A stretch of DNA of 64,000 bases from Candidatus Woesearchaeota archaeon (GTDB lineage Archaea > Nanobdellota > Nanobdellia > Woesearchaeales > UBA10216). Below, in pieces: positions 2,953 through 37,004 of the stretch (positions are counted from its first letter, which is position 1; every line of letters begins with the position of its first letter). The stretch spans positions 128,065 to 192,064 of the forward strand of contig JACPCV010000006.1 of assembly GCA_016184345.1 (NCBI GenBank), read 5' to 3'. The notes beneath the pieces are model-generated. The model did not search any database. It saw only the letters and a list, made by a program, of their open reading frames with translations, and had not been told where the DNA came from. A program made the position numbers and the translations under genes.

Positions 2953-3001
2953 AAGCTATTTATATTGAACTGCCTTTATTAAATTTGTGCTTTGGGGCAA
3001 G

Positions 3002-22851: not shown

Positions 22852-22880
22852 TATTAACGATCAGGCAACGAAGCTGGTTT

Positions 22881-23338
22881 TTAAAGGTTGTTGTGAGCTT
22901 CAGCCAGTTTCTTCAGTTTCAGGTAAACAGCTTCCAGAAATTGCAAAACCTGCTTCGCGTAAGCAGCGTCAAATCTTTTGCCGTAATAGTTTATTCCATT
23001 CCGGAAATAGCGAAGATCGTTGGCAAATCTCACGTCTGGCTCTTAGAATCCCATATTTCGCAAGTAAGCCACTTCTGCCTCGTGCGCGTATGCCCCTCCG
23101 GACTTGAATCCGTCACGCAGCAGCTTGGCGCGGATGAGCTCCATAATCACGTCATAGGCTGCTTCAACATAATAGTTCGCATTTCATCTGAAAGCCCTAA
23201 TTTGCCGGCAATTTCCTTGAGAAAAGCTTTTCTTTTTTCTGCTTCCTCAACCAGAGAGGCAGAGCGTGGAAGGTCTCTTCTTTGCTTTTTGATGGTTCCA
23301 TCGCTGACAAATTCCTCAAAGCGCCTCAAGCTGTTCAT
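22881..23338 (-). pseudogene. HEPN-domain gene, disrupted (one frameshift near 23180-23195 and an in-frame TAA at 23043-23045)
   Basis: The 63-aa ORF (MNSLRRFEEFVSDGTIKKQ...) continues in another frame as NYYVEAAYDVIMELIRAKLLRDGFKSGGAYAHEAEVAYLRNMGF*EPDVRFANDLRYFRNGINYYGK...AEAHNNL*. Position is downstream of, and overlapping, the wHTH-NTase gene. Confidence 0.6.
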
Positions 23339-23880
23339 AGCCGCATTGCCCCTTTTAGGACTATCCCATTTATGATACTCTCTTTTAAGTTTTTGGTTAT
23401 GGCGGCAAGGCTTTCATAAAAATTCAGCCTTATTTCCCTTTGGAGAAGCTTGCTGAATCTTTCCAGTTCCAGCGCTTTTTCCTTGGAACCAATCACGGCC
23501 ATATCAACGTCTGAAGTGCTGGTGTCCTCTCCGAAGGAGTAGCTGCCGAAAAGCACAATGGCTGCTCCGGGGAAGCTATCGCCCAAATAATCCGCAAGCC
23601 CTGACTCATACACCGCCTTCAGGTTCTCTGCCCTCTTAAGATGAAAAACCCAGGGGTTGTCCCTGTTCAGCTTAATGGCAAGCCTTCCTGAGTCTCTGTC
23701 CTTTTCAACCTTAACAAGGCCTTCTTTTTCAAGCCCTTTCAGCGATTTCGCTATCGCTGTTGGTGATACGCTTAAAGCATTTGCCAGCGCCCTGCCTGTA
23801 AACGCCATCTCAGGCCTTGCAAACAGCCCATTAAGCACAGCCTGCTGGAGCTTTGTAAACTTTAGTTTATATCTATCCAT
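23335..23880 (-). CDS. wHTH-fused minimal nucleotidyltransferase (MNT-type, HEPN partner)
   Basis: N-terminal wHTH (FTGRALANALSVSPTAIAKSLKGLEKEGLV) and the NTase motif LFGSYSFGEDTSTSDVDMAV. Confidence 0.75.
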   Translation of the reverse strand: MDRYKLKFTKLQQAVLNGLFARPEMAFTGRALANALSVSPTAIAKSLKGLEKEGLVKVEKDRDSGRLAIKLNRDNPWVFHLKRAENLKAVYESGLADYLGDSFPGAAIVLFGSYSFGEDTSTSDVDMAVIGSKEKALELERFSKLLQREIRLNFYESLAAITKNLKESIINGIVLKGAMRL

Positions 23881-23912
23881 TTTAGTTTACATACGTAAAC
23901 TTTAGTTTATAT
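23855..23912. promoter_or_regulatory. 18-bp direct repeat gtaaactttagtttatat (23855-23872 and 23895-23912) plus a partial copy (23881-23890), spanning the MNT start codon and upstream region; candidate operator
   Basis: Exact 18-mer seen twice, 40 bp apart. One copy lies inside codons 3-8 of the wHTH-NTase gene, the other upstream of it. Confidence 0.55.
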
Positions 23913-23980
23913 ACTTTTCTGTTTTGAGCCATCCAAGCGCCAGCCCGGAGGCCCCAAAACGGGAAGGGGAGCAGAAATCC

Positions 23981-24048
23981 TCAGCCCTTGCCAATAACCA
24001 GCTTCCCGCTCTTCTCTTCAGCCTCCAGGTTGTCGCCTTCCTTCCAGC
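23981..24048 (-). pseudogene. 3' remnant (about 22 codons) of a SpoVT/AbrB-like small gene, paralogous to 24723-24884
   Basis: The reverse strand reads ...WKEGDNLEAEEKSGKLVIGKG*. About 70% nt identity to 24723-24790 (GWKEGDSLEGKEKKGELLIRKA*). No upstream coding continuation. Confidence 0.5.
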
Positions 24049-24268
24049 TTCAAAAAGCCCAGGACAATTTTTGACAGCTTTGCCTCATTAGTCCGTTTTT
24101 AAGCTGACTTCTGGGGCAGGCGGCTGACTTTTGGGGCAAGAAGCACTTTTAAGGCAAAGCCATTTTTGGCAAAAAGCTTATAAACTCATACTGTGAACAT
24201 TAGCAGATAGCAAAATGGAAACCGTAACTGTTTCAAAAAAGGAGTATCAGCGCCTGAAAAAGGCAGGC

Positions 24269-24604
24269 TTAAGCCGTGGGATTAGATTTATTTTGCTTTA
24301 CCCATTCTTCAACTTCTTGCCTGTAAATTTCCAGAAATTTCATGACGGTGTTTATTGCCGTTTGCTGGTCTTTTTTCTCGCTTATTGTTATGAGGTACAG
24401 GATAAGGCACTCTTTGTAAATCAGATAGTAGATGCGATATTTTTTGTATTTCTTCTCCCTGAAAAAGTCCGAATGCAGGGGTTTTCCCTCAAACGGGTTT
24501 TCTTTTAGCTTGTCCCTTATCTTTTCAATGGCTCTTTGAACATCGGGAGAAAGCTTTGCGAACTTCCTGTCAAAAAGCTCTGTTTTCAAAATCCTATAAG
24601 CCAT
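24269..24604 (-). CDS. RelE/ParE-superfamily toxin-like protein
   Basis: FDRKFAKLSPDVQRAIEKIRDKLKENPFEGKPL...YRIYYLIYKECLILYLITISEKKDQ matches the RelE/ParE fold pattern. Confidence 0.6.
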   Translation of the reverse strand: MAYRILKTELFDRKFAKLSPDVQRAIEKIRDKLKENPFEGKPLHSDFFREKKYKKYRIYYLIYKECLILYLITISEKKDQQTAINTVMKFLEIYRQEVEEWVKQNKSNPTA

Positions 24605-24722
24605 TGGTTCTTCTGGGATGAACTTATATTTAAACCCTAGACTTGGTTTATCTCAGAAATCCGGAAAATATTCAGGAAGCCGGGGCCGCAATCTCCTCAA
24701 GCTCCCATTTCGATTCCACCCA

Positions 24723-24884
24723 TCAAGCCTTCCTAATCAGCAATTCCCCTTTCTTCTCCTTACCTTCCAGACTGTCGCCTTCCTTCCAGCCCAGGGACTT
24801 GATGAGGTTTTCCTTGATGACTATGACGTACTTGAAGTACTGTTTGTCCTCAACGCGGTGGGTTTTCTGCTTCTGCAGCTTCAT
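24723..24884 (-). CDS. Small SpoVT/AbrB-like protein (53 aa), possible antitoxin
   Basis: Below the ORF-track size cutoff. Hand translation: MKLQKQKTHRVEDKQYFKYVIVIKENLIKSLGWKEGDSLEGKEKKGELLIRKA. A TTTATAAA box lies about 25 nt upstream of the ATG. Confidence 0.5.
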   Translation of the reverse strand: MKLQKQKTHRVEDKQYFKYVIVIKENLIKSLGWKEGDSLEGKEKKGELLIRKA

Positions 24885-24955
24885 GGCTTAACTTTGCTTA
24901 TCGCCGTTTATAAAGGCATTGGTACCCAAGAGCTTATCTCTATTAGCTGGGGAGC

Positions 24956-25049
24956 CAGCTGCGGTTGGCTTGCAGCCAACTCCTTTTCCCTCCCCTACGC
25001 TTAAGCGTGGGGAGGAGAAAAGAACCTAAGCGTTACTTAGGCGCAGCTG
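24956..25049 (+). repeat. Structured four-way-junction element, copy 1 (outer 8-bp stem + three hairpins)
   Basis: CAGCTGCG / GTTGGCT-tgc-AGCCAAC / TTTTCCCTCCCC(T)ACGC-ttaa-GCGTGGGGAGGAGAAAA / CCTAAG-cgtta-CTTAGG / CGCAGCTG. Same architecture as 32719-32809, with compensatory substitutions in the stems. Confidence 0.65.
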
Positions 25050-25100
25050 ACCTGAACAACCGGCAAACTCCGTGCCTGACATACATATTGCAATAAAAGG

Positions 25101-25118
25101 TATTTGGGTACCCAAATA
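25101..25118. promoter_or_regulatory. Perfect 18-bp palindrome TATTTGGGTACCCAAATA within a cluster of three GGTACCCAA copies
   Basis: Self-complementary 18-mer. GGTACCCAA also occurs at 24921-24929 and 25135-25143. Tandem aaatactt x2 at 25114-25129. Confidence 0.5.
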
Positions 25119-25182
25119 CTTAAATACTTGCTTAGGTACCCAACTTAGTGCAAAATGCCCCTCTACACCACCTACACCCATT

Positions 25183-25348
25183 CAGAAGCCATTCAGATAA
25201 TGAAATTTCTGATTTTATATGCCATTGCATTCATTGCAGCATTTGCGTGGTTGTGGTGGAGGAGTGGCTGTGGGGGCGGGGAGGTTCGCTGAAAGAATTA
25301 CGGCAGAAATAGGAAGAACCACTGGGCATTTCGGAATGTTTGCGAAAA
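25183..25348 (+). repeat. Island intergenic repeat R1, copy a
   Basis: Aligns with 26095-26240. The 66-nt core ggttcgctgaaagaattacRgcagaaataggaagaaccactgggcatttcggaatgtttgcgaaaa differs at one position. The left part starts cagaagccattcagata in both copies. Confidence 0.8.
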
Positions 25349-25470
25349 AATCATAGGTTCCACTGGACACTGGACACGTGCCTGCGCAGGATTTATTAAT
25401 AGCCCTTCGCGGTAAATATTTAACAGACGCTGAAAAGACAACCGAAAGTTTTATAAATGAGGCATGCTTA

Positions 25471-25722
25471 ATGAAGAATGAAATGATTGTAAGGATAAGC
25501 AAGGGACAGCAGATAACAATACCCTCAGAGTACAGGGTGGAGTTTGGCTGGCAGGTTGGAAGCAAAATTGAGCTTACTAAGGAGGGGAACAAGATAGTCA
25601 TAAAGCCAATTGGAGAAGACTTACAGAAGCTCTTTGAAGAGGCCCACAATATTAGGCCTAAATTCAGGCTCACTGCAAAGCAGATGGATGAAGTGGTTGA
25701 ACGTGAAATTCTTGGACGCTAA
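25471..25722 (+). CDS. AbrB/SpoVT-family antitoxin (VapB-like)
   Basis: MKNEMIVRISKGQQITIPSEYRVEFGWQVGSKIELTKEGNKIVIKP is a swapped-hairpin AbrB motif. Overlaps the PIN gene. Confidence 0.7.
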   Translation: MKNEMIVRISKGQQITIPSEYRVEFGWQVGSKIELTKEGNKIVIKPIGEDLQKLFEEAHNIRPKFRLTAKQMDEVVEREILGR

Positions 25723-26077
25723 TGTGCTGGCTTACGCCTTTTACAGCAATGAAAACACCAATAAATGCCAAGCTGCCATTAAGGAAGGGGGCATTACCGA
25801 TACCTTCGGGCTTATTGAGGCTTTTCGCGTAATAGAGAAGGAAACTGGAAGCAGGGAAAGGGCACAGGGCGCGATTAAGGGCCTTCTTAAGTCCAGTATT
25901 GAGGTTATTGACGTTGACGTCAACGCTGTTTTTGAGGCGCTTAAGCAGGTAGGCCTGTCCAGGCTAAGCATATTTGACTCTGTGCATTACGCATGCGCAG
26001 CCATTAGCCATTGCAGCTCAATTCTTAGCTACGATAAGGATTTTGACAGGCTTGAGATTCCAAGGGAAGAACCTTAA
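25688..26077 (+). CDS. PIN-domain toxin (VapC-like)
   Basis: FLDANVLAYAF (first acidic residue), ...IFDSVHYACAA..., ILSYDKDFDRL (C-terminal Asp). ATG at 25688 overlaps the antitoxin end. Confidence 0.75.
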   Translation: MKWLNVKFLDANVLAYAFYSNENTNKCQAAIKEGGITDTFGLIEAFRVIEKETGSRERAQGAIKGLLKSSIEVIDVDVNAVFEALKQVGLSRLSIFDSVHYACAAISHCSSILSYDKDFDRLEIPREEP

Positions 26078-26094
26078 CAGCGCCCAGCCCCGTC

Positions 26095-26240
26095 CAGAAG
26101 CCATTCAGATAGCCAAATTCGTGGCCATTTACGTTGTTGCGTGGGTTGTGGTCGTGTGGTGGGTGAGGTGGAAGGGTTCGCTGAAAGAATTACAGCAGAA
26201 ATAGGAAGAACCACTGGGCATTTCGGAATGTTTGCGAAAA
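26095..26240 (+). repeat. Island intergenic repeat R1, copy b
   Basis: See 25183-25348. Same orientation; it directly precedes the second AbrB-PIN pair. Confidence 0.8.
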
Positions 26241-26321
26241 TTTTGTAGGAAGCACAAGTCGCGTGTGCACGACTGTGCCCAGTCGCAGCGGCGAGTAATA
26301 CTTTCTTACGAGGTGGTTTTT

Positions 26322-26585
26322 ATGCCGGAAGTGACGAAAATGACTACGAAAGGCCAGGTTGTAATTCCTTCAGAAATCAGGAAAGAGCTTGGGTTGGGCG
26401 AGGGAAGCCAGATGGTAGTCAGTAAGCTGGGGGAGCTTGTCCTGCTTAAGAAGATAGAAATTCCCGACCCAAAAAAGGAGCTGGATAGGCTCACAAAGTG
26501 GGGCAGCGCTTTTGCGAAAAAAACCGGGATAAAAAGTGAGGCTGATGTAGTTGCCAGAATACACAAGTTCAGGAAAGGCGCTTAA
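26322..26585 (+). CDS. AbrB/MazE-family antitoxin
   Basis: GAGGTGG SD then ATG at 26322. MPEVTKMTTKGQVVIPSEIRKELGLGEGSQMVVSKLGELVLLKK. Confidence 0.7.
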   Translation: MPEVTKMTTKGQVVIPSEIRKELGLGEGSQMVVSKLGELVLLKKIEIPDPKKELDRLTKWGSAFAKKTGIKSEADVVARIHKFRKGA

Positions 26586-26994
26586 CGTAGTTTTTGACAC
26601 GAACATATTCGTTTCCGCCATCTTCTGGCAGAAAGGGAACCCTCACAGGCTCTTTGAATTGGCAATTGACCAAAAGATTAAGGCTTTTACTTCTGTTGAA
26701 ATCCTGGGCGAGCTTCTCCGTGTTCTCAGGAGGGATTTTCCAGGGCAGGGGCAGGAGGAAACCATCCTTGATTACCTCTCCCTCATTTTGAAACGCATAA
26801 AGATTGTTGAAGCAAAGGCCAAGCTTGACGTGGTTAAGAACGATCCTGATGACAACAAGATCCTCGAATGCGCTGTGGCTTGCGGAGCAGATTACATAGT
26901 CACAGGCGACAAGCACCTGCTTGACCTAAAGGAATATGAGCGGATAAAGATAATAACGGCGGCGACACTGGTTGGGATTATGCGGCCCAGCTAA
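26551..26994 (+). CDS. PIN-domain toxin (PIN_3/TIGR00305-like)
   Basis: VVFDTNIFVSAIFWQKGNPHRL..., DPDDNKILECAVACGADYIVTGDKHLL. TTG start overlapping the antitoxin by 35 nt. Confidence 0.75.
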   Translation: MPEYTSSGKALNVVFDTNIFVSAIFWQKGNPHRLFELAIDQKIKAFTSVEILGELLRVLRRDFPGQGQEETILDYLSLILKRIKIVEAKAKLDVVKNDPDDNKILECAVACGADYIVTGDKHLLDLKEYERIKIITAATLVGIMRPS

Positions 26995-27055
26995 GGCGAA
27001 GAGAAATTGCGGTCCGGAAGCCATAATAAAAGTACCCAAAAGAGGAGGAGTCAAG

Positions 27056-28189
27056 TTGTCTAATCAGATTTGTGAATGGAAAGAGCTTCCTAAAAACATG
27101 AATAATAAGCTACATACAATCTGTAGCTATATGGCTATGTTTCCACCTTCACTCCCCCATTATTTTATTCAGAAATACTCTAATGAAGGTGATGTGGTTT
27201 TGGACCCCTACTCGGGAAGGGGTACGACTGTTCTTGAAGCTTGCTTGATGAGTAGGATTGGAATAGGAAACGATAAGAATATTCTTGCACATCTTTTGAC
27301 CAAAGCAAAGAGTGATATTCCTGCGAAAGGCCGTATACTTTCGAGGATAAATCAATTGGAAAAAGATTTCAATCCATCACTAATCTCCCTTAACAGTATA
27401 GACCCCAACGTGAGAATGATTTTCAGTGATACTACCCTCTCGCAGATGGCATTCCTGAAAGACAAATTGAATTGGAGAAGAAGTAATGTTGACTCATTTA
27501 TTGCCGCTATGGTCCTGGGCATTATGCATGGAAATTCCGAAGGTTATCTATCCGTCAGTATGCCGAACACATTCTCAATGGCACCAAATTATGTCAGAAA
27601 GTATATTCACGAGCACAATTTGCAGAGACCTATTCGGGACACATTTGCATTGCTCCGAAGAAAGTTGGAACGCTGCTATCAAAAAAGTTCGGTCAGTGGA
27701 AAAGCTTACAGTCAGGATGCAAGGAAGATAACCAGAATAAAGAATTCCTCTGTAGACCTCATTGTTACTTCCCCACCTTACACAAGGGTCATAAGGTATG
27801 GGCAATTCAACTGGATTAGATTATGGTTCCTTGGCAAGTCAGGCAAGGAAATTGACAAGGATTTGTTTTTCTCGCAGTCAATTCCGAAATACTCGGAGTT
27901 CATGGTTCAATCACTGCAAGAGATGAAAAGGGTGTTGAAACCTGGCGGCAAGGCAGTTCTGATTATAGGTGATGTAAAAGACAGAACAAGTGAAAAAATT
28001 TTCAATCTTGCTCAAACCATTTGGGATGACTGCGCCAAATCTGTAGGTTTCAAATTAATGCAGCCCATAATTGAGGACGCAATTAGAGACGACACCAAAG
28101 TTTCAAAAATCTGGGGAGAAACAAAGGGAAATGCTACAAAAAAAGATAGGATTTTGATTTTAGAAAAAACTGATTCATCTACCTCTTAA
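27056..28189 (+). CDS. DNA amino-methyltransferase (N6-adenine or N4-cytosine), motif I upstream of motif IV
   Basis: YMAMFPPSLPHYFIQKYSNEGDVVLDPYSGRGTTVLEA (motif I region), DLIVTSPPY (motif IV), RVLKPGGKAVLIIGD. About 190 aa lie between motifs I and IV (presumed target-recognition region). TTG at 27056 behind GAGGAGG is preferred (alternative ATG at 27098). Confidence 0.8.
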   Translation: MSNQICEWKELPKNMNNKLHTICSYMAMFPPSLPHYFIQKYSNEGDVVLDPYSGRGTTVLEACLMSRIGIGNDKNILAHLLTKAKSDIPAKGRILSRINQLEKDFNPSLISLNSIDPNVRMIFSDTTLSQMAFLKDKLNWRRSNVDSFIAAMVLGIMHGNSEGYLSVSMPNTFSMAPNYVRKYIHEHNLQRPIRDTFALLRRKLERCYQKSSVSGKAYSQDARKITRIKNSSVDLIVTSPPYTRVIRYGQFNWIRLWFLGKSGKEIDKDLFFSQSIPKYSEFMVQSLQEMKRVLKPGGKAVLIIGDVKDRTSEKIFNLAQTIWDDCAKSVGFKLMQPIIEDAIRDDTKVSKIWGETKGNATKKDRILILEKTDSSTS

Positions 28190-28843
28190 CAAAATTTTTA
28201 ACTCCTTATCGAATCTTTTCTTGAGGGTATTGTGAAATTCAGAGCAAAGTTCCAAATCTTTTAAATCAAACAAAATCTTCCCTCTTTGTTGAATTACTCT
28301 CTCCATATTACTTTCTTCAAGGAACCTTTTTGCTTCTGATAAAGTTTGCTCTATATGTTTTAATCTTTCATTAACAATTTTTGGCGGGCTACCAGCGGCT
28401 ATGCTCCAAAACCATCCCGCATCTCTAAATTGAGTGGGTTTTTCTTTATTCTTAAGCCATTCTTTAAAGATTGGATGGTCTATGATTTTTATTATTGCTT
28501 CTTGCAGAGCTCTCGTAGCTTTTAGCTGTAGTTCTTCACTATGTGGTTTCAATCTTAGAGCGGTGGTAAGTCCAGCTTCACTTATTGTATATGCCCTCTC
28601 GCCAACCTTTTTAAGTAAACCTTTAGCCACGAGACCATCTTTACCATCCAGTTTAGTAAAAACGATATTTGAATCAGGAAATTTACTCTCGTAGCCTCTC
28701 AATCCGAATGCAGAATTATCATCTTCCCAAGCTTTGACTATGACTTCTTCAGCTGTGAATTTCGTAGTTACACTTCCCTCACTTAACGACAATGCAGCTA
28801 TAAGAACTCTTTCATTTAATGTAAAATTCTGACTATCGTTCAT
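28175..28843 (-). CDS. Hypothetical protein (222 aa), N-terminal wHTH-like; last gene of the four-gene operon
   Basis: ATG overlaps the upstream gene end by 11 nt. The 3' end overlaps the convergent MTase 3' end by 15 nt. ...LDGKDGLVAKGLLKKVGERAYTISEAG is wing-like. No catalytic motif seen. Confidence 0.6.
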   Translation of the reverse strand: MNDSQNFTLNERVLIAALSLSEGSVTTKFTAEEVIVKAWEDDNSAFGLRGYESKFPDSNIVFTKLDGKDGLVAKGLLKKVGERAYTISEAGLTTALRLKPHSEELQLKATRALQEAIIKIIDHPIFKEWLKNKEKPTQFRDAGWFWSIAAGSPPKIVNERLKHIEQTLSEAKRFLEESNMERVIQQRGKILFDLKDLELCSEFHNTLKKRFDKELKILLRGR

Positions 28844-31184
28844 TTTCAGTCATACCTCCTGCACTTTTTATCCAAGGTGCTAATTTATCCCACATTTTAG
28901 AAGTTAAATCTACGTAGAACCTCTCGTAATTGGCTTTGTGAGATGACCATAATTCAGGTTTCTCATTATCACCCTTCCTTATATATTCGTGGCTCATCCA
29001 TACTTGAATCATCATTTCTACAAATAACTTTGCATGAAAGAGACGCCAGGCAGTTAAATCAATTTTTCGAAGTTCATAGGCGAAATTAGCGTCTTTGCTT
29101 TGCATATTAAGCCACCAGATATTGTTTTGCACATCAATAACTTCCTGCCATAATGCGGGTTGTTCAGAGTTTCCTTGCCTAATTTCTCCAGTAATAGGGT
29201 CTTTGTCTTTGCCCGTCATCAGGAGCTGTGGGAACCCACTACCGCCACTTTCATTAATAACGCCTTTTATTACTTCGACTTCTGTTGGAATTGTATTCCA
29301 CAAACCGTCATTTATATCCACTCCAGCGTATATGTTCGTTTTGCCAATAACATTCCCAAATATGAACCCTTTTGGAGTTATTTTTACAAGTTCGGAATTA
29401 TCGGAATCATGTCTCCAATTCAAAAGAACGTCAATCGATGCTATTCCCTCGTAATCAATCACTTTCGCGGTTATCTGTTTAGATTGTCCCAAAGGAACTT
29501 GTATTATTCTTGGAATCAAATAAATTTCTTTTATGTTGACAACTTTTACTTCCAGAAGAGGGCTACTTATATTACTGCCTTCAATATATGCGTATGCTGT
29601 GCATTTTCCTTTTGATAAAGCTTCCAAATCACCTTCAGGGGTCACATTCAGAATTTTACAGTCATTACTTTTCCAATGGATGGTGGTTATTACTGGTTTA
29701 TCATTAAAATCTTTAGCAACCGCCTTCACTATTGATACGATGTTTGTTTTGAAACCCGTGGCACATTTTATCTGGTAAGTCGACAGATTTATTCTGTCAA
29801 CAATCTTCCCCCAATCAATTTGGTGCCCTTTTTTTTTCTTTTTACCACCAGCTTCATTTCCAAGAATCGATGACAAATCAATTTGACCTTCTTCAGGCAT
29901 AAATTCGTTTTTTATTTCGTTCAGGAACTTGTTATCCTTGTGAATGTCATCAAGAATATTTTCATCCTGTTCCATCATTCTTGTTTCATTTATTTTCCGC
30001 GCCAACGCTCTGATGTTTTCAGCCAAGAAGTCATCTAAAGCCATCATTAAGTCACCGTCAGTAGGTCTTAATCTTCCAGTGTTTACAAAGTCCGTAAGAG
30101 CATCCAGCTCAGCACTTGCGTAAATGAAATGCGAACCTGGAACAGTCGGAGCGACTTCTGATATATCCTTTTGCCCCACAGTTTCGAATTTCGTTTTATA
30201 GGTTACCTTCCATCTGGGTTTCAATCTTACAAAATTTGACTCCATACTATCTTTTGAAGTAAACAGGACTATCTTCCCTTGATTATATTTTCCGTTTTTT
30301 GTGGTGGAGACCCCTTTATTGTTCTCAGGATTTTTTAAGGAAGCTGGTATTTCATACTCAAATGGACCTTCAAACCCAAGATATGGGGGTATCTGCTCTA
30401 ATTGAAGAGGATTTCCATCAAATAATAATTTTCCATTGTGGATAGCATAGAATTTAATTTGTTGAACTGGCAAAGTTGCCTGTGATTTTTTGAGCACTTT
30501 TTTTATAAAAAAATTAATGTCAGGTTTTTCTTCCCAATTAAGTGGTTCAATACCTTGAACAAGCGTAAATGCTTTTCTATCATTTAACGCCTTTCTTATT
30601 TCAGAAGGTAAGTCACTTAAGCCAAAATCGTAGTCCTTTAACTGTTCAACCAACATATCTTCCCATGAGCTAATCAAGCAATCTTTAGCTTTTGTTGTAT
30701 CTGGTATGTATCCGGGAATGCCTCTTTCAAGCGTTTTTATATCGCCCACAAATCCTTTACAATTTAACTTATTATCTTTTACACCAAAAATGTAAGCAGG
30801 TCCCTTGAAAAGCCTATACATGTAAGATTTCCCACCATTTCCTTGAGTTATCTCATCAAATTTGTCCGAACCTCTTCTTGAAGCATCTGGGTCTTGCCAT
30901 ACGCCCCATCTCTCAACGTCTTCATTGGTTGCACCACCCACATCCAAAATTCCTAATCTCGCTGGGGCATTACCTTCCTTATCCTTGAATAACAGTGCCG
31001 CTACCCTATGTTCAGGTTTTACATTGGCTCTATCTTGTTGATAAGCTGCTCTCACATTTTTCATCCATTCTGGGAATCCATCTTCGTGCTGATTTAACCA
31101 TCTTGTAACAGCTGCCAAAGTTCCTTCCTCGTGAAACTTTATTTGCTTATCCCTTTCAATCTGATTCTTTTGGTTCATTTTCAC
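28833..31184 (-). CDS. Large protein (about 782 aa): N-terminal GHKL-like (Bergerat-fold) ATPase motifs, central region, two Big_2-like Ig domains, Trp-rich helical C-terminus
   Basis: FPEWMKNVRAAY (N-box-like ExxxN), LGILDVGGATNED (DxGxG-like), ITQGNGGKSYMY (GxxGxG-like). IQVPLGQSKQITAKVIDYEG...LLNWRHDSDNSELVKITPKGFIFGNVIGKTNIYAGV (Big_2-like). GTG at 31184 overlaps the upstream stop (ATGTGA); the ATG at 31178 behind GGGAGA is an alternative start. Confidence 0.6.
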   Translation of the reverse strand: MKMNQKNQIERDKQIKFHEEGTLAAVTRWLNQHEDGFPEWMKNVRAAYQQDRANVKPEHRVAALLFKDKEGNAPARLGILDVGGATNEDVERWGVWQDPDASRRGSDKFDEITQGNGGKSYMYRLFKGPAYIFGVKDNKLNCKGFVGDIKTLERGIPGYIPDTTKAKDCLISSWEDMLVEQLKDYDFGLSDLPSEIRKALNDRKAFTLVQGIEPLNWEEKPDINFFIKKVLKKSQATLPVQQIKFYAIHNGKLLFDGNPLQLEQIPPYLGFEGPFEYEIPASLKNPENNKGVSTTKNGKYNQGKIVLFTSKDSMESNFVRLKPRWKVTYKTKFETVGQKDISEVAPTVPGSHFIYASAELDALTDFVNTGRLRPTDGDLMMALDDFLAENIRALARKINETRMMEQDENILDDIHKDNKFLNEIKNEFMPEEGQIDLSSILGNEAGGKKKKKGHQIDWGKIVDRINLSTYQIKCATGFKTNIVSIVKAVAKDFNDKPVITTIHWKSNDCKILNVTPEGDLEALSKGKCTAYAYIEGSNISSPLLEVKVVNIKEIYLIPRIIQVPLGQSKQITAKVIDYEGIASIDVLLNWRHDSDNSELVKITPKGFIFGNVIGKTNIYAGVDINDGLWNTIPTEVEVIKGVINESGGSGFPQLLMTGKDKDPITGEIRQGNSEQPALWQEVIDVQNNIWWLNMQSKDANFAYELRKIDLTAWRLFHAKLFVEMMIQVWMSHEYIRKGDNEKPELWSSHKANYERFYVDLTSKMWDKLAPWIKSAGGMTENER

Positions 31185-32119
31185 ATTCTCCCAATTATGC
31201 TATAATCATTTCTTTCGTTTTTTACTAGCCCCAGCTCCCTTAGCAGAGAGATTTTTCCGGAACTAAATGTGGTTGCAAGGTTGCTGAGCTGTTTCTTAAA
31301 TTCAACAGGATCATTTGTCTTCGAGCTTACTTTTTTCACATAAGCAACAAATTTAGGATTATTCTCGAACCACTTCCACAAATCATCTTTACCATTATTG
31401 CCTTTCTTGATAAAAGAATAAACGTCAGAGAGAAGAGTATATTCCTTGAAACCCTGTCTGTCTATACTTTTGAGGTAATTCAAAAGCCAGATTTTTTCCT
31501 CAGGCGTTAATACTTGATTCTTGTCGAGGTTATCAAAAATATTATTTTTTAATCTTGCAAATTCCAAACCTTGGCTGGTTGGCCTCACCAATATCTTATC
31601 CCAATCTTCATTCCATATGTTCTTTTTTTGAGCTCCCTTTTCAAGATGAACTTCAAAAAGCCCAAGATTACGGAAACCATCAAGAAAATGAGTCACTAAC
31701 CTTCTGATTGAAAAGTTGTCGTCTAAATCCTTTGGAAACCCTTTCAATTTGGATAATTCATATCTTTTTATGATCTTTTTTGACTCACCAATTAGTTTAG
31801 TCAGAGGTACATATTCTACCTTTTGGGTATAAAGAAGATTTGCTGAGATTCGTAATAAAGCCTTTCCAGAAAAGAAATCATTAAACATACCCCACAGCCC
31901 AACAGACCTCGTCAGATCATCTAGAACAATTTGTCCGGAAGGGACTTTAATTTGAGGAGGGATAGTTAAATAGTTCAGCTCTTTAGATACTGATTGTGAA
32001 TTGATTCCGTTTGGACCAAAACCGCAAAGAGGACAACCATCAGAGTTCTTATTAAGGTCAAACTCCGAACCACATTTCCCACACTTTACGCGATTTTCTC
32101 CTGTTGCGAACAAAGGCAT
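31181..32119 (-). CDS. Zinc-ribbon protein (312 aa) with helical/wHTH-like remainder, hypothetical
   Basis: VKCGKCGSEFDLNKNSDGCPLCGF at the N-terminus. C-terminal ...GKISLLRELGLVKNERNDYSII is wHTH-like. AGGTAGGTG SD, 8 nt after the upstream stop. Confidence 0.6.
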   Translation of the reverse strand: MPLFATGENRVKCGKCGSEFDLNKNSDGCPLCGFGPNGINSQSVSKELNYLTIPPQIKVPSGQIVLDDLTRSVGLWGMFNDFFSGKALLRISANLLYTQKVEYVPLTKLIGESKKIIKRYELSKLKGFPKDLDDNFSIRRLVTHFLDGFRNLGLFEVHLEKGAQKKNIWNEDWDKILVRPTSQGLEFARLKNNIFDNLDKNQVLTPEEKIWLLNYLKSIDRQGFKEYTLLSDVYSFIKKGNNGKDDLWKWFENNPKFVAYVKKVSSKTNDPVEFKKQLSNLATTFSSGKISLLRELGLVKNERNDYSIIGRM

Positions 32120-32126
32120 AACACAC

Positions 32127-32339
32127 CTACCTGATTGAAGTTACGGTCATTCTAATTCTGCCGTCCTTTCCTTTTTTGTGGTCATAAATAGCGAGGTCAA
32201 AACTCGGGCTGCCACTTATCGCATTCAAGATAGACTGAGCTAGGCTTAGGCCTTCATCTTTACTAATAACTAAATTCACAGATTTGGCGCCCCTGTAAAC
32301 CTTAGTTAATTTCACAAATCCGTAATATTTCCGTTTCAT
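32127..32339 (-). CDS. Small protein (70 aa), hypothetical; first gene of the operon
   Basis: GAGGGGG SD 8 nt upstream of the ATG. MKRKYYGFVKLTKVYRGAKSVNLVISKDEGLSLAQSILNAI.... No motif recognised. Confidence 0.5.
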   Translation of the reverse strand: MKRKYYGFVKLTKVYRGAKSVNLVISKDEGLSLAQSILNAISGSPSFDLAIYDHKKGKDGRIRMTVTSIR

Positions 32340-32381
32340 AAGTCAAACCCCCTCTTATTTATTTATTATAAGTTGACTTAT
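32338..32381. promoter_or_regulatory. Perfect 9-bp inverted repeat ATAAGTCAA...TTGACTTAT enclosing the SD and touching the start codon of the operon's first gene
   Basis: Arms at 32338-32346 and 32373-32381 with a 26-nt AT-rich spacer containing GAGGGGG (minus sense). A TATA-like ctttaatatataaag lies at 32391-32405. Confidence 0.5.
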
Positions 32382-32471
32382 AGAGAAAAGCTTTAATATA
32401 TAAAGTTTTCGGAATCTTTCCGGAAATGCCGGGAAAAATTACGAAAAGGTTTCCAGCAAGAACTCGGATTT

Positions 32472-32648
32472 TCACATTACAGTTTCATTTATTATTTTCC
32501 GAACGTTTCCGTAAAAATTTTTCAAAGCTTTTCTCACTTCACCTTGCTTTCTTATTTGAACTTCCCTGCCTATTCGAGCCAATTCTTCCTGAAATTTTAA
32601 ATCAATCTCGTGTTTTAACATCTCACTTAAGTATTTTTTCGAATTCAT
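32472..32648 (-). CDS. Small helical protein (58 aa), hypothetical
   Basis: The internal ATG (MNSKKYLSEMLKHEIDLKFQEELARIGREVQIRKQGEVRKALKNFYGNVRKIINETVM) has a TTTATAAA box about 26 nt upstream. The longer track ORF would run into the repeat element. Confidence 0.4.
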   Translation of the reverse strand: MNSKKYLSEMLKHEIDLKFQEELARIGREVQIRKQGEVRKALKNFYGNVRKIINETVM

Positions 32649-32684
32649 GCTTAGGTCACAAGAAATTGAGATTTTATAAATCTT

Positions 32685-32846
32685 CTGCCGACTCGGCAAA
32701 GTCAAGTTAATTGTGGTAGCCGACTTTGGTCTTGCAGACTTGCTTTTCCTCTCCTACGGTTACCGTGGAGAGGAGAAAGCAACCCAAGCTCAGCTTGGGC
32801 AAAGTCGGCACAAAAACACGGAGAAGTTGACTTTACCTGCCGACTC
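32685..32846 (+). mobile_element. MITE-like unit containing structured element copy 2 (32719-32809), bounded by the 10-bp direct repeat CTGCCGACTC and imperfect inverted termini
   Basis: CTGCCGACTC at 32685-32694 and 32837-32846. Inner ends are GGCAAAGTCAAGTT... and ...AAGTTGACTTTAC (11-12 of 14 complementary). Core: GCCGACTTTG / GTCT-tgc-AGAC / TTTTCCTCTCC(T)ACGG-tta-CCGTGGAGAGGAGAAA / CCCAAGC-tca-GCTTGGG / CAAAGTCGGC. Confidence 0.5.
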
Positions 32847-32873
32847 ACCCCTCCCCCCTCCCACACCCTCCAA

Positions 32874-32911
32874 CCCGTCCCTCTCCTCTGCCGCCATGGA
32901 GCTTGCCTTTG
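32874..32911 (+). repeat. Direct repeat R2, copy a (flanks the HEPN/NTase module)
   Basis: cccgtccctctcctctgccgccatggagcttgcctttg versus 34234-34271 cccgcccctctccgctgccgccccggagcttgccttgg. 33 of 38 identical, same orientation. Confidence 0.7.
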
Positions 32912-33000
32912 AGGATGGTGAGGGCGCCTGTTCGCAAGCTGCGGTTTCACCTTCACTTTCAGCTTCAGCTTGCTTCAGCTTTAGTCATTTTGTGCCGGTC

Positions 33001-33501
33001 TTACCCTTGAACAATGCCCTTGGTGTCTTTAATCATGTCCTGGCAAATGCCAAGAAGTTCCTCCACTTTCTGCTTATCAATCTCTATGATGGGCGTGTAC
33101 TGGTACTTCTCACGCATAGGAATCACCTTATCTTCACCCATATCAGCACTGATGGCGTCCACATACCTTTTGAAGTGCTGGCTGATTTTGCCTTCTTCAA
33201 TAAGGCTCTCAACAGCGGCCAGCGTACAGTCCTGGTTCCTGCTCTCATAGCCAAACTTAGTTATAATAGCCAAGCAGCAATGGTACGTCACGTAAAAGCC
33301 AATATTGATCGCCCAATCATAAAAACCATGCTTCCTATTCAGCAGGAAAACCTCAAGATTATGCTCCGCCTTAACAATATATTCCTTAGCTAAAGCATCA
33401 TCCGGCTTTACTTTAACCAAGCCGCGATGCTTTGCGCCAGATGCCAATTGCTTCTTTGCCTGGTCCAAACACCATCGCACCTTATGCTCTGCTTTGGACA
33501 T
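33001..33501 (-). CDS. HEPN-domain protein
   Basis: Four-helix HEPN pattern (AKEYIVKAEHNLEVF...GFYVTYHCCLAIITKFGYESRNQ...). Overlaps the upstream wHTH-NTase gene by 20 nt. Confidence 0.72.
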   Translation of the reverse strand: MSKAEHKVRWCLDQAKKQLASGAKHRGLVKVKPDDALAKEYIVKAEHNLEVFLLNRKHGFYDWAINIGFYVTYHCCLAIITKFGYESRNQDCTLAAVESLIEEGKISQHFKRYVDAISADMGEDKVIPMREKYQYTPIIEIDKQKVEELLGICQDMIKDTKGIVQG

Positions 33502-34087
33502 TCTTCAGCATCCCCACAAAAAGTTCCTGGCCATGAACCACAACGCATGTTCTTACCATATCAACTAACGGCTTGTCTTTCTCCCTTAGCTTCTTTTCAA
33601 ACTCCCCCTCAGTAAGATATAACGGGTGAATTCTCAGGCGATTCTTCCGGTTCATCTCAGCCACGCCGCTTTGCAGCCTGCCATAATCCTTTGCATCCTT
33701 GAGTATGAAACACGCGTCCACATCACCAGCACGCCTCTCTTTTGTCAGGATTGAACCAAACAAAAACATGGCCTTAGTATCCGGAATGAATGACCGCAAA
33801 TCATAAATCCAGCCTTTCACGAAGCTTGACAAGCTGCTATGTTCAAGAAAAATCAGCTCCAGAAGCTTCAGCACATACTCATTATCAAGGTTTGGCTTGT
33901 AAAAAATGGCGTTGCCCATCTTCTCGCTAACCAGAAGATTCTTCTCATTCAGGCTTCTCAACAGTTTCAGGCTGCCAACGCCACTAATCCCAAGCTTTTC
34001 CTTAATATTGTAAGAGTTGTAGCTAGTCAAAAAGTCGGTAAAGATAACCTTCAAAGCTCTCTTACCATTCTCACTAACCTCAACCAT
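33482..34087 (-). CDS. wHTH-fused minimal nucleotidyltransferase (MNT-type)
   Basis: N-terminal wHTH (NIKEKLGISGVGSLKLLRSLNEKNLLV) and NTase motif LFGSILTKERRAGDVDACFIL. Confidence 0.75.
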   Translation of the reverse strand: MVEVSENGKRALKVIFTDFLTSYNSYNIKEKLGISGVGSLKLLRSLNEKNLLVSEKMGNAIFYKPNLDNEYVLKLLELIFLEHSSLSSFVKGWIYDLRSFIPDTKAMFLFGSILTKERRAGDVDACFILKDAKDYGRLQSGVAEMNRKNRLRIHPLYLTEGEFEKKLREKDKPLVDMVRTCVVVHGQELFVGMLKNVQSRA

Positions 34088-34233
34088 CTTACCATAACCT
34101 CAAGTTAGAGTACTATAACTTTAAGTTATATATAAGCTTTTCTATTCCCGCAAACCGCATTGGCTTTTTCGGTAGCTGCTTCGGCCACTTTTCTTCTTTA
34201 ACGATTTTTGCCAGCGTATGCGCCACTGGACAC

Positions 34234-34271
34234 CCCGCCCCTCTCCGCTGCCGCCCCGGAGCTTGCCTTGG
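34234..34271 (+). repeat. Direct repeat R2, copy b
   Basis: See 32874-32911. Confidence 0.7.
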
Positions 34272-34322
34272 CATCTGAGCCGAAAACCACGCTTACCGTT
34301 TCTTTGATGACTGCGCTATTTA

Positions 34323-35110
34323 TTAGTCCCCCTTCTTTTTGTGCCCGAGCCTTTTTTGCCCTTCCGGCTTTTCAAGGAAGTTGCCACTGGAGACAACGCT
34401 TTTCCCGAGCTTTTGCTCAATGTCCTTTCGTGTTGAGCCGGCAATGTCCCCGCCATCCTTTGCGTCTTTTTTCATGGTTGGAAACTCTTTGGAATCGCGC
34501 TCCCTTGTGAACCGTGTGGTCGTTGCTTCCCCAAGCATTGTCAGGATAAGCTCCAGGTCATCCATGTGGTCTCTGAGGTTTTCTTGCTTATCTCGTTGGT
34601 GAGAATAGCATATTCTCTATCTTCCCCAACGCCCCGCTTCTTCCATTCATCCGTAAGCTCATCCCTTACCGCTATGCCTCTGGCTCGCTTCTCAATCCAC
34701 TCGTTTGAGTAGCCTTTGGCTGCGTAAATCTCCTTCATTCGCTTTTGTGCCAGTTCAGGATTTTCTATCTCCTTAACGCGGTCGTAGCCCACTTTTGCCA
34801 GCCAAAGCTTGAAAGGTTCGGCTTTTGGGGAAGGTATTGACTGAATTATCCTGAAGGCGCCTTCTGTGTTGATGCAGTTCATTTTCTGTTTTCCTCCAGC
34901 GGTATCAACTGGAAGGGTATGTACAATTTGTACCCACCCTTGAGCTAGAATTGGATCCCTTTGCTTGACTTTTTGAATATACTGCTTAGGGTCATTAGAA
35001 TCAGTAAGGGCGGCTACAATATCCTCCACCACAAACCACCATTCATCATTGAACCAAGTTCTTCGAATGTTCTTGCCTTGAAATACCACCATTGCATTGT
35101 CAGTGTCCAT
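34323..35110 (-). pseudogene. Bro-N / DinD-like (DNA-damage-inducible protein D family) gene, split by an internal deletion or frameshift near 34565-34585
   Basis: The 189-aa ORF has a Bro-N N-terminus (VFQGKNIRRTWFNDEWWFVVEDIVAALTDS) and ends ...ILTNEISKKTSETTWMTWSLS*. The +1 frame reads QENLRDHMDDLELILTMLGEATTT..., continuing as the 80-aa ORF 34323-34565. Confidence 0.6.
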
Positions 35111-35548
35111 TTTGCCTGCTTAGTATGTATTTGCTTATAAATCCTCGCCGCCCATTTGTCCAGTGTCCAGTGCTTCGAAAGTTCGCCTAAATTTTTAGGC
35201 GACCCACCGTTTACTTTACAGCCCAGCATAATCCGCTTTAGGCAGATTCGGTTCATTCCTGTTTTCAAACAAGTCCAGCCATATCGAAGTGTCCAGATAA
35301 TAGCTGTTCATTTCATCTTTGAAGTGATGGTTCTTAATAAGCTTTTTGGCTGTTTGTCGTCGGAGAATTTACGGATTTAATGGAAAGTTTTCAAAAAATT
35401 GCCGTTTTAGCGGCAAGTTTCCGGATAATGCCGAAAATTAAACGCTAATGCCGTAATTCTTGCGGCATTTCTGGGGCAAGGCTTAATTTGCCTGCCAATT
35501 CAGCTGTTTCCATGGAAAACTATAAATATAGGGTATGGTGTACCATAT

Positions 35549-35836
35549 ATGGCTGAGAAGATAATTGACCACAAGTATGCTGAAGGGGAGGAAGTCCTTC
35601 AGATTCGCATATTCAAGGTAGAGGTGTCTGAGAAAAACCCGGAAGGCTATTCATATTCGCTTGTTTACATTAAAAACGGCAAAAGGCTTGTCGGCTATGA
35701 CAACTTTGAAGGCCACTCAAAGGGAGGCAACAACCATCATAAGCACGTAAAAGAAATGATAAGCGAGTACTGTTTCGTTGACATTTGGCAGCTTATGGAA
35801 GACTTCAACCGCGATGTTGAAAGGGTGAAAAAATGA
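35549..35836 (+). CDS. DUF6516/TumE-like toxin-like protein
   Basis: YSYSLVYIKNGKRLVGYDNFEGHSKGGNNHHKH matches the pattern recalled for this family. 4-nt ATGA overlap with the next gene. Confidence 0.55.
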   Translation: MAEKIIDHKYAEGEEVLQIRIFKVEVSEKNPEGYSYSLVYIKNGKRLVGYDNFEGHSKGGNNHHKHVKEMISEYCFVDIWQLMEDFNRDVERVKK

Positions 35837-36207
35837 AGGCAAGTAATATAAAGGTAACAATCAAAAGCCGGGCGCAGGTTTTGCAGGAGTTTGGCGAAGC
35901 TTTTGAGAATTTGAAGAAAGGAGAGCCTGTGCTTTACCGGAACGAGTTGTCGTTTGGCAGCCTTGAAGCGCTCAGAAAGGTTCTGACAGAAAAGAGAACA
36001 GAGCTTCTTAAAGCCATAAAGGAAAAATCTCCCGAATCTGTATACGGGCTTGCAAAGCTTGTCAGCAGGGACCTGAAGAGCGTCAGCACTGACCTTAAGA
36101 TTCTTAAGAGCCTTGGGTTGGTGTCACTTGCGAAATCAAATGAGGGCAGGTTCAGGGTCAGGCCTGAAGTTCTCTTTGACAAGCTGAGCATTGAAATTGC
36201 GGTATAA
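35833..36207 (+). CDS. wHTH DNA-binding protein (HVO_A0114/TumA-like antitoxin-like)
   Basis: ...RKVLTEKRTELLKAIKEKSPESVYGLAKLVSRDLKSVSTDLKILKSLGLVSL is wHTH. This is the usual partner of DUF6516 genes. Confidence 0.55.
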   Translation: MKASNIKVTIKSRAQVLQEFGEAFENLKKGEPVLYRNELSFGSLEALRKVLTEKRTELLKAIKEKSPESVYGLAKLVSRDLKSVSTDLKILKSLGLVSLAKSNEGRFRVRPEVLFDKLSIEIAV

Positions 36208-36217
36208 GCGGCGTTTT

Positions 36218-36970
36218 TCAAATCCCCACCTTCTCCGCCAAGTCAGAAACAACTGCGGATTGTCCTTTTCCAATTTTTAGCTCTTGCAGTGTGAGCTTTC
36301 CTATGGCTGTCCTTTCAAGCCGGGTGACTTTGTTTCCTAGGGCTTCCAGCATCCGCCTGGCCTCGCGCTTCTTGCCTTCTGTGAGAACAAGCTTTAGATG
36401 CTTTCTGCCAGGCGGAATTATCTCTGCCGTGCACGGCCTTGTTGTGTAGCTGGTGATTTTTCCATTTTCTTCAAGCTGTATCATTACTCCTTTCCGGAGC
36501 TTGTCCAACTCTTCATCGGTTATGGGCCTGGCAAGTGCTGCCTCATACGTCTTCTCAATTCCTGAGCCTGGTGCCGTGATTCTTGAGCCGAGCTTGCCGT
36601 CGTTTGTGATTATGAGGAGCCCTGAGCTGTCCTCGTCAAGCCGGCCAGTGCAGAACAGGGACTTTTCTGTTTGGCTATCAAGGTTGCTTACGAGCTCAAA
36701 GACGCTCTTTTTTCCAAGCCGTGCATCTTCCGGAGTAAGCCTGGATGACAGGTAGCCTTCAGGCTTGTTTATTGCGATGTATGTTTTGGCAGTTATCCTT
36801 TCCAGGGGCTTTCCTTTCCAGCACACTTTTTTCTTCGTGTCAAATATGTGCATCGGGTTGGTAATTGTCTTGCCATCAATTGTTAGTTCTGCCTTGGCTA
36901 CCGCTGTAATCAGTTCCTTCTTGCTGCTGAAGGCGCCTGTCCTGCTTTTAGTGGGGTGAGCTGTATCCAA
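36218..36970 (-). CDS. Pseudouridine synthase, RsuA/RluB family
   Basis: Catalytic motif GRLDEDSSGLLIITNDG, then YEAALARPITDEELDKLRKGV. TTG start at 36970 in the track (start uncertain). Confidence 0.8.
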   Translation of the reverse strand: MDTAHPTKSRTGAFSSKKELITAVAKAELTIDGKTITNPMHIFDTKKKVCWKGKPLERITAKTYIAINKPEGYLSSRLTPEDARLGKKSVFELVSNLDSQTEKSLFCTGRLDEDSSGLLIITNDGKLGSRITAPGSGIEKTYEAALARPITDEELDKLRKGVMIQLEENGKITSYTTRPCTAEIIPPGRKHLKLVLTEGKKREARRMLEALGNKVTRLERTAIGKLTLQELKIGKGQSAVVSDLAEKVGI

Positions 36971-37004
36971 ACTCTTTTAAACATCCTGTTTTCTGGGAGT
37001 ATCC

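Follow-up and report, generated by a model that had tools for sequence, protein, structure and literature searches.

Two branched palindromic elements in a Woesearchaeota genome as probable members of a new family of miniature transposable elements

Two elements with the same branched plan lie in the same orientation at 24954-25051 (copy 1) and 32719-32809 (copy 2) of a 64,000-nucleotide stretch of contig JACPCV010000006.1 from a Candidatus Woesearchaeota archaeon (positions 128,065 to 192,064, forward strand); the whole of this stretch is hereafter called the window. Both fold into a four-way junction, and we interpret the junctions as probably being the cores of two independently inserted and subsequently diverged copies of a non-autonomous foldback MITE (a miniature transposable element with inverted repeats) of about 141-144 bp, residing in Woesearchaeota (DPANN archaea). 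The element is accordingly described here as a MITE family that is new and whose core is a branched palindrome. It is small, its units hold only short spurious open reading frames (ORFs) and thus have no coding capacity, it is flanked by duplications, one orthologous insertion site is known in filled and empty states, and the window holds two copies. An earlier note on this DNA had offered a MITE core as one of three readings, and it is this one that agrees with the 8-10 bp repeats, the inverted arms, the filled and empty alleles and the near-identical copies in unrelated contexts.

The shared fold and its covariation

The minimum free energy (MFE) and centroid structures of both copies consist of a closing stem with three hairpins and a junction nearly without unpaired nucleotides, exactly the shared architecture that the earlier note had placed here. 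The outer stem of copy 1 pairs CAGCTGCG (24956-24963) with CGCAGCTG (25042-25049) and is lengthened by an extra G-C pair (24954/25051) beyond a C.A mismatch, so that it spans 24954-24963/25042-25051. It encloses hairpin 1 (GTTGGCT-TGC-AGCCAAC, 24964-24980), hairpin 2 (24983-25022) with a bulged T at 24996 and a bulged A at 25016, and hairpin 3 (CCTAAG-CGTTA-CTTAGG, 25025-25041), all given on the plus strand. The corresponding parts of copy 2, likewise on the plus strand, are the outer stem GCCGACTTTG (32719-32728) with CAAAGTCGGC (32800-32809), hairpin 1 (GTCT-TGC-AGAC, 32729-32739), hairpin 2 (32740-32782) and hairpin 3 (CCCAAGC-TCA-GCTTGGG, 32783-32799). Five distinct copies were aligned, and all but one of them have an outer stem of 10 bp, which corrects the earlier note. 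The almost complete divergence formerly ascribed to the stems of the two window copies does not extend to hairpin 3, in which they differ at one pair and one added pair only.

On the plus strand the MFE is -59.5 kcal/mol for copy 1 and -54.9 kcal/mol for copy 2, whereas shuffled sequences average -35 and -29 (z -6.8 and -7.7), and none of 200 shuffles was equally stable. The minus strand is of equal stability (z -8.7 and -8.2). A covariance model built from copy 1 alone and run on the window with filters off scores copy 1 at 120.5 bits and recovers copy 2 at 72.9 bits, while the best other score in the 64 kb does not exceed 11.6 bits. A second model, built from five sequences and run on 280 kb (the window and related loci), scores all six copies known to us at 76-100 bits (copy 1, 91.1; copy 2, 98.4) and has no other match there. 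The four copies outside the window come from metagenome-assembled genomes (MAGs) of Woesearchaeota type.

Covariation was assessed on five distinct copies with 42 pairs and 199 cells, of which 97.5% hold standard pairs. Changes on both sides occur in 15 of the 42 pairs, namely in seven of the ten outer-stem pairs, two pairs of hairpin 1, four of hairpin 2 and two of hairpin 3. None of 500 column shuffles attains the observed pairing, pair count or covariation score, and slid registers pair at 38-48%. That structure is kept as the sequence changes is upheld by these figures. Sequence conservation is confined to hairpin 2, including the bulged T of its 5' arm and the bulged A of its 3' arm, and unpaired conserved nucleotides are almost absent from the structure. 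Cells with double changes number 25, versus two G.U cells, and each copy has between none and three G.T pairs among about 40 on either strand. In RNA families G.U intermediates are common, so that near-pure Watson-Crick change is less typical of them. The pattern of changes is what Watson-Crick complementarity in DNA predicts, and it fits a DNA at least as well as an RNA.

Further copies, flanking repeats and occupied sites

A scan of 185,579 species genomes for a strict hairpin-2 pattern yielded three true matches, all within about 500 nt of a contig end: L001 and L006 in Woesearchaeota MAGs, and L002 on a 2.4-kb contig binned as Methanosarcinales. The sixth copy, L029, came from fetching orthologues of the gene that adjoins L006. 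Its hairpin 2 reads GGGGAGAGGAAAG where the pattern expected GGGGAGGAGAAAG, which means that the pattern was too narrow and that the family is under-sampled. A pattern scan of metagenomes and three viral scans gave chance matches only, BLAST of plasmid and phage collections gave no match, and a concatenated six-frame peptide query over the element had none at E <= 10, where the long query probably lowered the sensitivity. L001 and L002 are 97.6% identical over 125 nt and stand next to a DUF433 gene and a CutA1 gene, respectively. L002 also carries a 50-nt insert (2159-2208) in the 5' arm of hairpin 2, which adds two more hairpins and makes a nested multi-way junction; the two ends of the insert are perfect inverted repeats of 7 nt (CACAAGT...ACTTGTG), and it lacks a target duplication.

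Each junction is nested in a unit of about 141-144 bp, in which complementary sequence extends outward from the junction and is followed by short direct repeats. The order within the unit is an arm of 20-29 nt, the 10-bp outer stem, hairpin 1, the bulged hairpin 2, hairpin 3, the outer stem again and the other arm. Exact direct repeats of 8-10 bp surround four units and a repeat matching at 9 of 10 positions surrounds one, the left repeat starting 30-37 nt before the junction in all five. The inverted arms reach significance in three copies (copy 2, L002 and L029) out of the five whose two ends are intact. Unit lengths are 143 nt in copy 2, 144 nt in L029 and L006, and 141 nt in L002 without its nested insert (191 nt with it).

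In copy 2 the layout is TGCCGACTC / GGCAAAGTCAAGTT...junction...AAGTTGACTTTACC / TGCCGACTC. The target-site duplication TGCCGACTC stands on the plus strand at 32686-32694 and again, exactly, at 32838-32846; it is 10 nt long (CTGCCGACTC) when the preceding C is counted, a length equalled in 4 of 2000 shuffles. The left terminal inverted arm, GGCAAAGTCAAGTTAATTGTGGTA (32695-32718), agrees at 12 of 14 positions with the reverse-complemented right end, GGTAAAGTCAACTT, and 4 of 2000 shuffles do equally well. Together with the right arm, ACAAAAACACGGAGAAGTTGACTTTACC (32810-32837), it delimits a unit of 32695-32837. The motif CAAGTTAAKTGKGR of the left arm recurs in L001, in L002 and in L031, an insert treated below. 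L002 has the layout TTTCATTTCG / ATGATTTCAAGTTAAGTGGGAA...junction...TCCCGCATTACTTGACATTATC / TTTCATTTCG, with a 10-bp repeat (25 of 2000 shuffles as long) and arms matching at 16 of 21 positions (16 of 2000 shuffles as good). The arms of L029, GGGTTGTTGCAAAA and GGGTTATCGCATAA, match at 11 of 14 (33 of 2000 shuffles) inside an 8-bp repeat, TTCCAAAC, and L006 has the imperfect repeat TCAGAAGCCG / TCAGAAACCG with weak arms.

The limits of copy 1 are less sharp. Its candidate target-site duplication GGTACCCAA (plus strand, 24921-24929) is repeated as an exact 9-mer at 25107-25115, equal length being reached in 49 of 2000 shuffles. The 24-nt left arm (24930-24953) fits the 20-29 nt of left arms elsewhere, and we regard it as degenerate, since it is not significantly complementary to the right arm. 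The right arm (25052-25106) ends either at 25070 or at 25106. The former end gives a 141-nt unit in agreement with the 141-144 nt of the other copies, with tips GAGCTT/AAACTC and a decayed repeat, CGTGCCTGA, matching at 5 of 9 positions. With the latter end, the exact repeat that stands 55 nt right of the junction closes a unit of 177 nt. This right-hand repeat is part of a perfect 20-bp palindrome, GTATTTGGGTACCCAAATAC (25100-25119), which together with a third GGTACCCAA at 25135-25143 blurs the right boundary.

Some further observations concern the ends. An inverted partial copy (15 of 19 nt, GGGCAAAGTCGGCACAAAA) of the 3' outer-stem arm of copy 2 and the first 6 nt of its right arm lies at 32988-33006, at the stop codon of a HEPN gene, and may be a relic of another insertion. 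The tips GGGTTGTTGCAAAA of L029 and GGCACTGTAGAAAA of L034, an unrelated insert described next, may resemble IS6-family ends such as GGCACTGTTGCAAA, a likeness given no weight here.

Occupied and vacant sites were compared in the short stretch upstream of PhoU, which separates an AbrB-PhoU gene from a divergent neighbour, in seven assemblies with PhoU 70-100% identical. The site is empty in L035, where it reads TTTTAAATgttttTCAACGGAAaacaataaaaac, and in L036, and it carries the element in L006 and L029. In L034 it is instead occupied by an unrelated 101-nt branched palindrome (6106-6206, minus strand) with an exact 9-bp flanking repeat, TCAACGGAA. This repeat is single in the empty site of L035, which makes the L034 insert a textbook insertion. 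A third insert, running off the contigs, is found in L031 (contig JAIYOL010000020.1, 1-135, minus strand), L032 and L033; it opens with the arm of L002 (CAAGTTAAGTGGGAA) and has a different interior. Such an L031-type insert might be an autonomous partner of the element. The filled and empty alleles, as well as the near-identical L001 and L002 in unrelated contexts, are signatures of mobility.

The same reading as a MITE explains why assemblies fail at the element. Logan contigs of the source population end at 25019, 32777 and 32748, inside hairpin 2, in several runs, with left and right contigs overlapping by exactly 30 nt (k-1) that cover the upper part of the hairpin. The NCBI contig L030 likewise ends in the hairpin-2 loop (position 1). 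Either further copies sharing the 30-mer or sequencing errors at the inverted repeat that branch the graph would produce such breaks.

Competing explanations

Several observations weigh against a MITE and have to be considered. The 9-mer of copy 1 is present three times locally, so that its assignment as a flanking repeat is ambiguous, the 8-bp repeat of L029 is weak when taken alone (226 of 2000 shuffles as long), and L001, truncated at its missing right end, has no duplication. The inverted arms are not significant in copy 1 and L006. Moreover, the arms are not conserved between copies, even within the window (GAGCTT... versus GGCAAAGTC...), which is not as predicted for one transposase that recognises end sequences; variable termini around a conserved internal hairpin are the reverse of the usual MITE pattern. 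Pfam scans of the 63 window ORFs detected no transposase, integrase or reverse transcriptase, and none was found among the neighbours of L001, L002 and L029. Copy number appears low for a MITE, given that two large pattern scans yielded few copies or none. Finally, the stems are perfect in all copies, which is unexpected for dead insertions under neutral decay. We interpret the perfect helices as an indication either of young copies, or of selection or a copying mechanism acting on the folded single strand. A mobile core nested independently within the unit was rejected, as no direct repeats immediately flank the outer stem.

The strong covariation in all four helices and the conserved hairpin 2 with both its bulges could also be expected of a structured non-coding RNA, either a free-standing gene or a MITE fold adopted by the host, acting through the bulged hairpin as a protein-binding site. 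Such an RNA would be transcribed from a palindromic TATA box that the divergent leaderless gene also uses, and in four copies the outer stem does have a palindromic A/T box (TTTATAAA, TTTATAAA and TTATATAA, with a TTTAAA core) 38-44 nt upstream; its symmetry could allow divergent transcription with a start about 16 nt before the stem. The bacterial repeat bcr1, an analogue, is a transcribed element whose fold is maintained through compensatory changes (PMC3184786). Against this stand the excess of double changes over G.U cells, the scarcity of G.T pairs, the equal folding of both strands and the near lack of unpaired conserved nucleotides. In copy 2, L001 and L006, purine-rich sequence resembling a transcription factor B recognition element (BRE) adjoins the TATA box on the side that faces the neighbour gene. 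A start 24-27 nt from the box would fall in the left arm and give an RNA without part of the unit, and no oligo-T terminator follows the element. The distribution of copies is explained by the signatures of mobility, and the scan against Rfam that the earlier note had in mind brought no family for the element: only a tRNA-Pro (48259) reaches the gathering score in the window, and matches at E <= 10 are noise, the best being HgcC at 16.4 bits versus a 50-bit cutoff. We consider the RNA explanation unlikely, and the stand-alone RNA gene of the earlier note is disfavoured by mobility, Watson-Crick covariation, strand symmetry and the side of the BRE; an RNA-level role of an element transcript may exist as a secondary one. 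Better-known RNA classes were rejected as well. ARAGORN reports only the tRNA-Pro and a tRNA-Leu (49531) in the window, and a tRNA, a permuted or intron-containing tRNA, a riboswitch and a ribozyme lack ARAGORN or Rfam support and would require larger loops. The minus strand of L006 shares GGTAACCGTAGGGGA with 16S rRNA, a coincidence in our view; a hairpin 2 resembling 16S rRNA helix 45 was dismissed, with copy 1 and L029 swapping the apical G-C pair to C-G in a compensatory manner.

A site that acts as folded single-stranded DNA, comparable to an integron attC, an IS200/IS605-type end (a palindrome-associated transposable element, PATE) or a REPIN mobilised by RAYT, would likewise keep its structure while its sequence varies. 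The conserved extrahelical T and A of hairpin 2 and the pairing by Watson-Crick rules alone agree with such a DNA-level fold. The element is, however, flanked by 8-10 bp duplications, and to our knowledge none of the attC, IS200/IS605/PATE and REPIN systems makes target duplications. RYYYAAC/GTTRRRY boxes are missing from the stem base, where the closing sequences are CAGCTGCG and GCCGACTTTG, and the only two copies in the window are separated by 7.7 kb instead of occurring once in each cassette. Hairpins 1 and 3, the two smaller ones, are unlike each other, contrary to left-end and right-end hairpins. The tyrosine recombinase and TnpA that the earlier note would have looked for are missing, as is TnpB, from the Pfam scans of the window ORFs. 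We therefore regard the comparison with attC and IS200/IS605 sites, as far as identity is concerned, as very improbable. It is still harder to believe that the two copies are attL/attR-like boundaries or composite-transposon ends of the 7.7-kb segment between them, where two VapBC pairs and a type II methyltransferase are encoded together with a low-GC operon of five genes. The copies do flank, in the same orientation, a drop in GC to 0.36-0.37, and the whole region is a variable island which relatives lack. However, each copy has a repeat pair of its own (GGTACCCAA versus TGCCGACTC), and the mismatch of the outer repeats indicates that the segment did not move as one unit. At 77% identity the copies are not the near-identical duplicates of an integration, L001 and L029 are single without a partner within 8-10 kb, and population contigs break at 27025, inside the segment.

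Genomic setting, possible mechanism and known systems

Both window copies lie beside the putative promoter of a small leaderless gene on the minus strand, and the start codons (24884 and 32648) and boxes reported in the earlier note were recovered. Upstream of the 53-aa gene (24723-24884), the putative TATA box TTTATAAA occupies 24907-24914, with the ATG 22 nt downstream, and copy 1 is inserted 6 nt past it. The box of the 58-aa gene (32472-32648), again TTTATAAA, occupies 32673-32680, and the duplication of copy 2 starts 5 nt past it; a purine-rich AGAAGA on the gene side of this box may, judging from sequence, represent the BRE. Both genes are also called on Logan contigs. For copy 1, copy 2, L029, L006 and the L034 insert of the other family, the start of the duplication lies 4-6 nt past a leaderless gene's TATA box. 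The fixed spacing of 71-72 nt to the ATG follows from this start and from the 20-29 nt that the left arm adds. The empty PhoU allele has two divergent promoters only about 12 nt apart. The spacing to the TATA box may reflect purifying selection or insertion targeting. A link to one particular neighbour gene was rejected, as the neighbours differ between copies: the 53-aa gene (without a Pfam match), the 58-aa gene of unknown function, DUF433, CutA1 and AbrB-PhoU. Small ORFs of 30-44 aa with hydrophobic N-terminal halves (e.g., MKFLILYAIAFIAAFAWLWWRSGCGGGEVR) occur 20-150 nt downstream of three copies (25200-25292, L001 650-739 and L002 2291-2425, all on the plus strand). A role of the element as the 5' leader of such peptides was discarded, the ORFs being absent after copy 2 and L006, and their presence is probably a coincidence.

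Copies 1 and 2 are both contained in a 14-kb toxin-antitoxin and restriction island (22852-37004) between the genes for valyl-tRNA synthetase (ValRS) and an XPD-type helicase. The island comprises MNT/HEPN, ParE-like, two VapBC pairs, the type II methyltransferase, the low-GC five-gene operon, Bro-N and TumE. The ValRS gene adjoining copy 1 has its best matches, at 60-90% identity, in Woesearchaeota and Nanoarchaeota MAGs. Three relatives (L014, L015 and L017; ValRS 74-89% identical) lack the island and have a ValRS-helicase gap of 0.2-1.9 kb, which is free of genes in two relatives and contains three small ones in the other. A fourth (L016, ValRS 90% identical) has other toxin-antitoxin genes in the gap. 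No copy of the element was found in these syntenic regions. The intergenic spot between ValRS and helicase is a hot spot for gene gain.

Other features of the window are noted for completeness. The operon (28175-32648, minus strand; 58, 70, 312, 783 and 222 aa; GC 0.36-0.37) is convergent with the N6/N4 DNA methyltransferase gene at 26972-28189 (plus strand). None of its five proteins has a Pfam or PADLOC match, and it may constitute an undescribed restriction or defence partner of the methylase. Compared with Logan contigs from the same population that are otherwise 100% identical, the window lacks 54 nt at about 34583 (L022-L025) and 57 nt at about 24260 (L019/L020), both in frame and between short direct repeats (GGTTTTC and AAAAG, respectively); the 54-nt deletion leaves an ORF of 189 aa in place of a Bro-N gene of 280 aa. 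A pyrimidine-rich tract of 50 nt (CACCCCTCCCCCCTCCCACACCCTCC...) at 32848-32895 directly follows copy 2 and its right duplication; it is G-rich on the HEPN-coding strand and could form a G-quadruplex. Close to the window's left end, at 888-3406, genes for a HaeII-like restriction endonuclease, a C5 cytosine methyltransferase and a Vsr mismatch endonuclease make up a complete restriction-modification module of type II.

If the junctions are MITE cores, their mobilisation can be pictured as follows. A transposase supplied in trans, from outside the window, would cut with an 8-10 bp stagger and insert the unit, and the fold would be needed as single-stranded or cruciform DNA during this process; alternatively, by analogy to the proposal for bcr1 of Bacillus, the fold might be selected in transcripts. 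Hairpin 2 with its bulged T and A would serve as the sequence-specific determinant of recognition, while the other helices would only need to pair. Copies would persist 4-6 nt past the TATA box of a divergent leaderless gene, where an insertion presumably destroys nothing: compact genomes may offer few such harmless spots, and the duplication would preserve the BRE-TATA context. A bolder version, which we put forward as a doubtful though specific proposal, is a mechanism that reads structure rather than ends, in which the enzyme binds hairpin 2 in a folded single strand or an extruded cruciform and cuts at the foot of the foldback of about 142 nt, whatever the sequence there. Such a mechanism would account for the free covariation, by Watson-Crick changes only, of hairpins 1 and 3 as well as of the outer stem and the arms, for termini that differ between two copies of one genome, and for a unit length fixed at 141-144 nt. 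Insertion itself may be targeted, as in five events at three loci the duplication starts 4-6 bp past the TATA box.

The interpretation as a MITE removes a false lead, in that a covarying cloverleaf turns out to be neither a new RNA class nor a recombination site. A Woesearchaea genome was already reported to be dense in MITEs, with 105 per Mb (PMC11602168). The present element puts on record a MITE family of DPANN archaea, a group in which mobile DNA has received little study. It is also a clean natural example of compensatory evolution through Watson-Crick changes only, and as such a warning for RNA-discovery pipelines that score covariation. That assemblies of short reads break at hairpin 2 has a bearing on the quality of DPANN MAGs. 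Should the termini indeed be defined by structure and the internal hairpin be the recognition site, a way of mobilising DNA that is so far undescribed would be at hand, and targeted insertion, if true, would be a prokaryotic parallel to eukaryotic elements that target promoters.

The Correia elements of Neisseria and SM1-SM4 of Sulfolobus are among the canonical prokaryotic MITEs. Like the present element, canonical MITEs, including those of an archaeal cMITE census (PMC11602168), are 50-800 bp in size, non-coding, intergenic and polymorphic for presence and absence, and they have target duplications of 2-10 bp. They also have terminal inverted repeats, which in the present element reach significance in three copies. 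Their termini, however, are conserved and match those of a cognate insertion sequence, whereas in our element the termini vary and the internal bulged hairpin is kept; in addition, all four of its helices covary, it is known from six copies, and no cognate insertion sequence came to light in the window or the other loci retrieved. REPIN/RAYT systems and the PATEs of IS200/IS605 share with it the nature of hairpin-forming miniature mobile DNA, and their enzyme recognises a folded single strand, often with an extrahelical base. They differ in that they are not known to make target duplications and rely on a Y1 HUH transposase, while the element has duplications and the window is without Y1 or TnpB. 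The attC sites, which act as folded single-stranded DNA, resemble it in keeping structure and extrahelical bases while the sequence varies. By contrast, an attC is a single bulged hairpin with R''/R' and L''/L' boxes that occurs in cassette arrays and is served by IntI, and the element is a four-way junction with flanking duplications, no R/L boxes and no IntI in the window. A tRNA, too, is a four-way junction of about 90 nt, comparable also in the closing stem of 8-10 bp, but the loops of the element measure 3-5 nt, D-loop and T-loop motifs are missing, and its "anticodon arm" would have 17-19 bp.

The closest analogue is bcr1, a repeat of about 155 bp in the Bacillus cereus group with short direct repeats and a cruciform-like fold maintained by compensatory changes, which is proposed to act at the RNA level (PMC3184786). 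It is bacterial and transcribed, and it has 5-bp direct repeats and two independent stem-loops, in contrast to the archaeal element with its 8-10 bp duplications, three hairpins set in a 10-bp stem, inverted arms and one hairpin conserved in sequence. The likeness is one of description of fold and flanks, with no sequence similarity to be expected: both are small, gene-less, interspersed and flanked by direct repeats, and their distribution varies between related strains.

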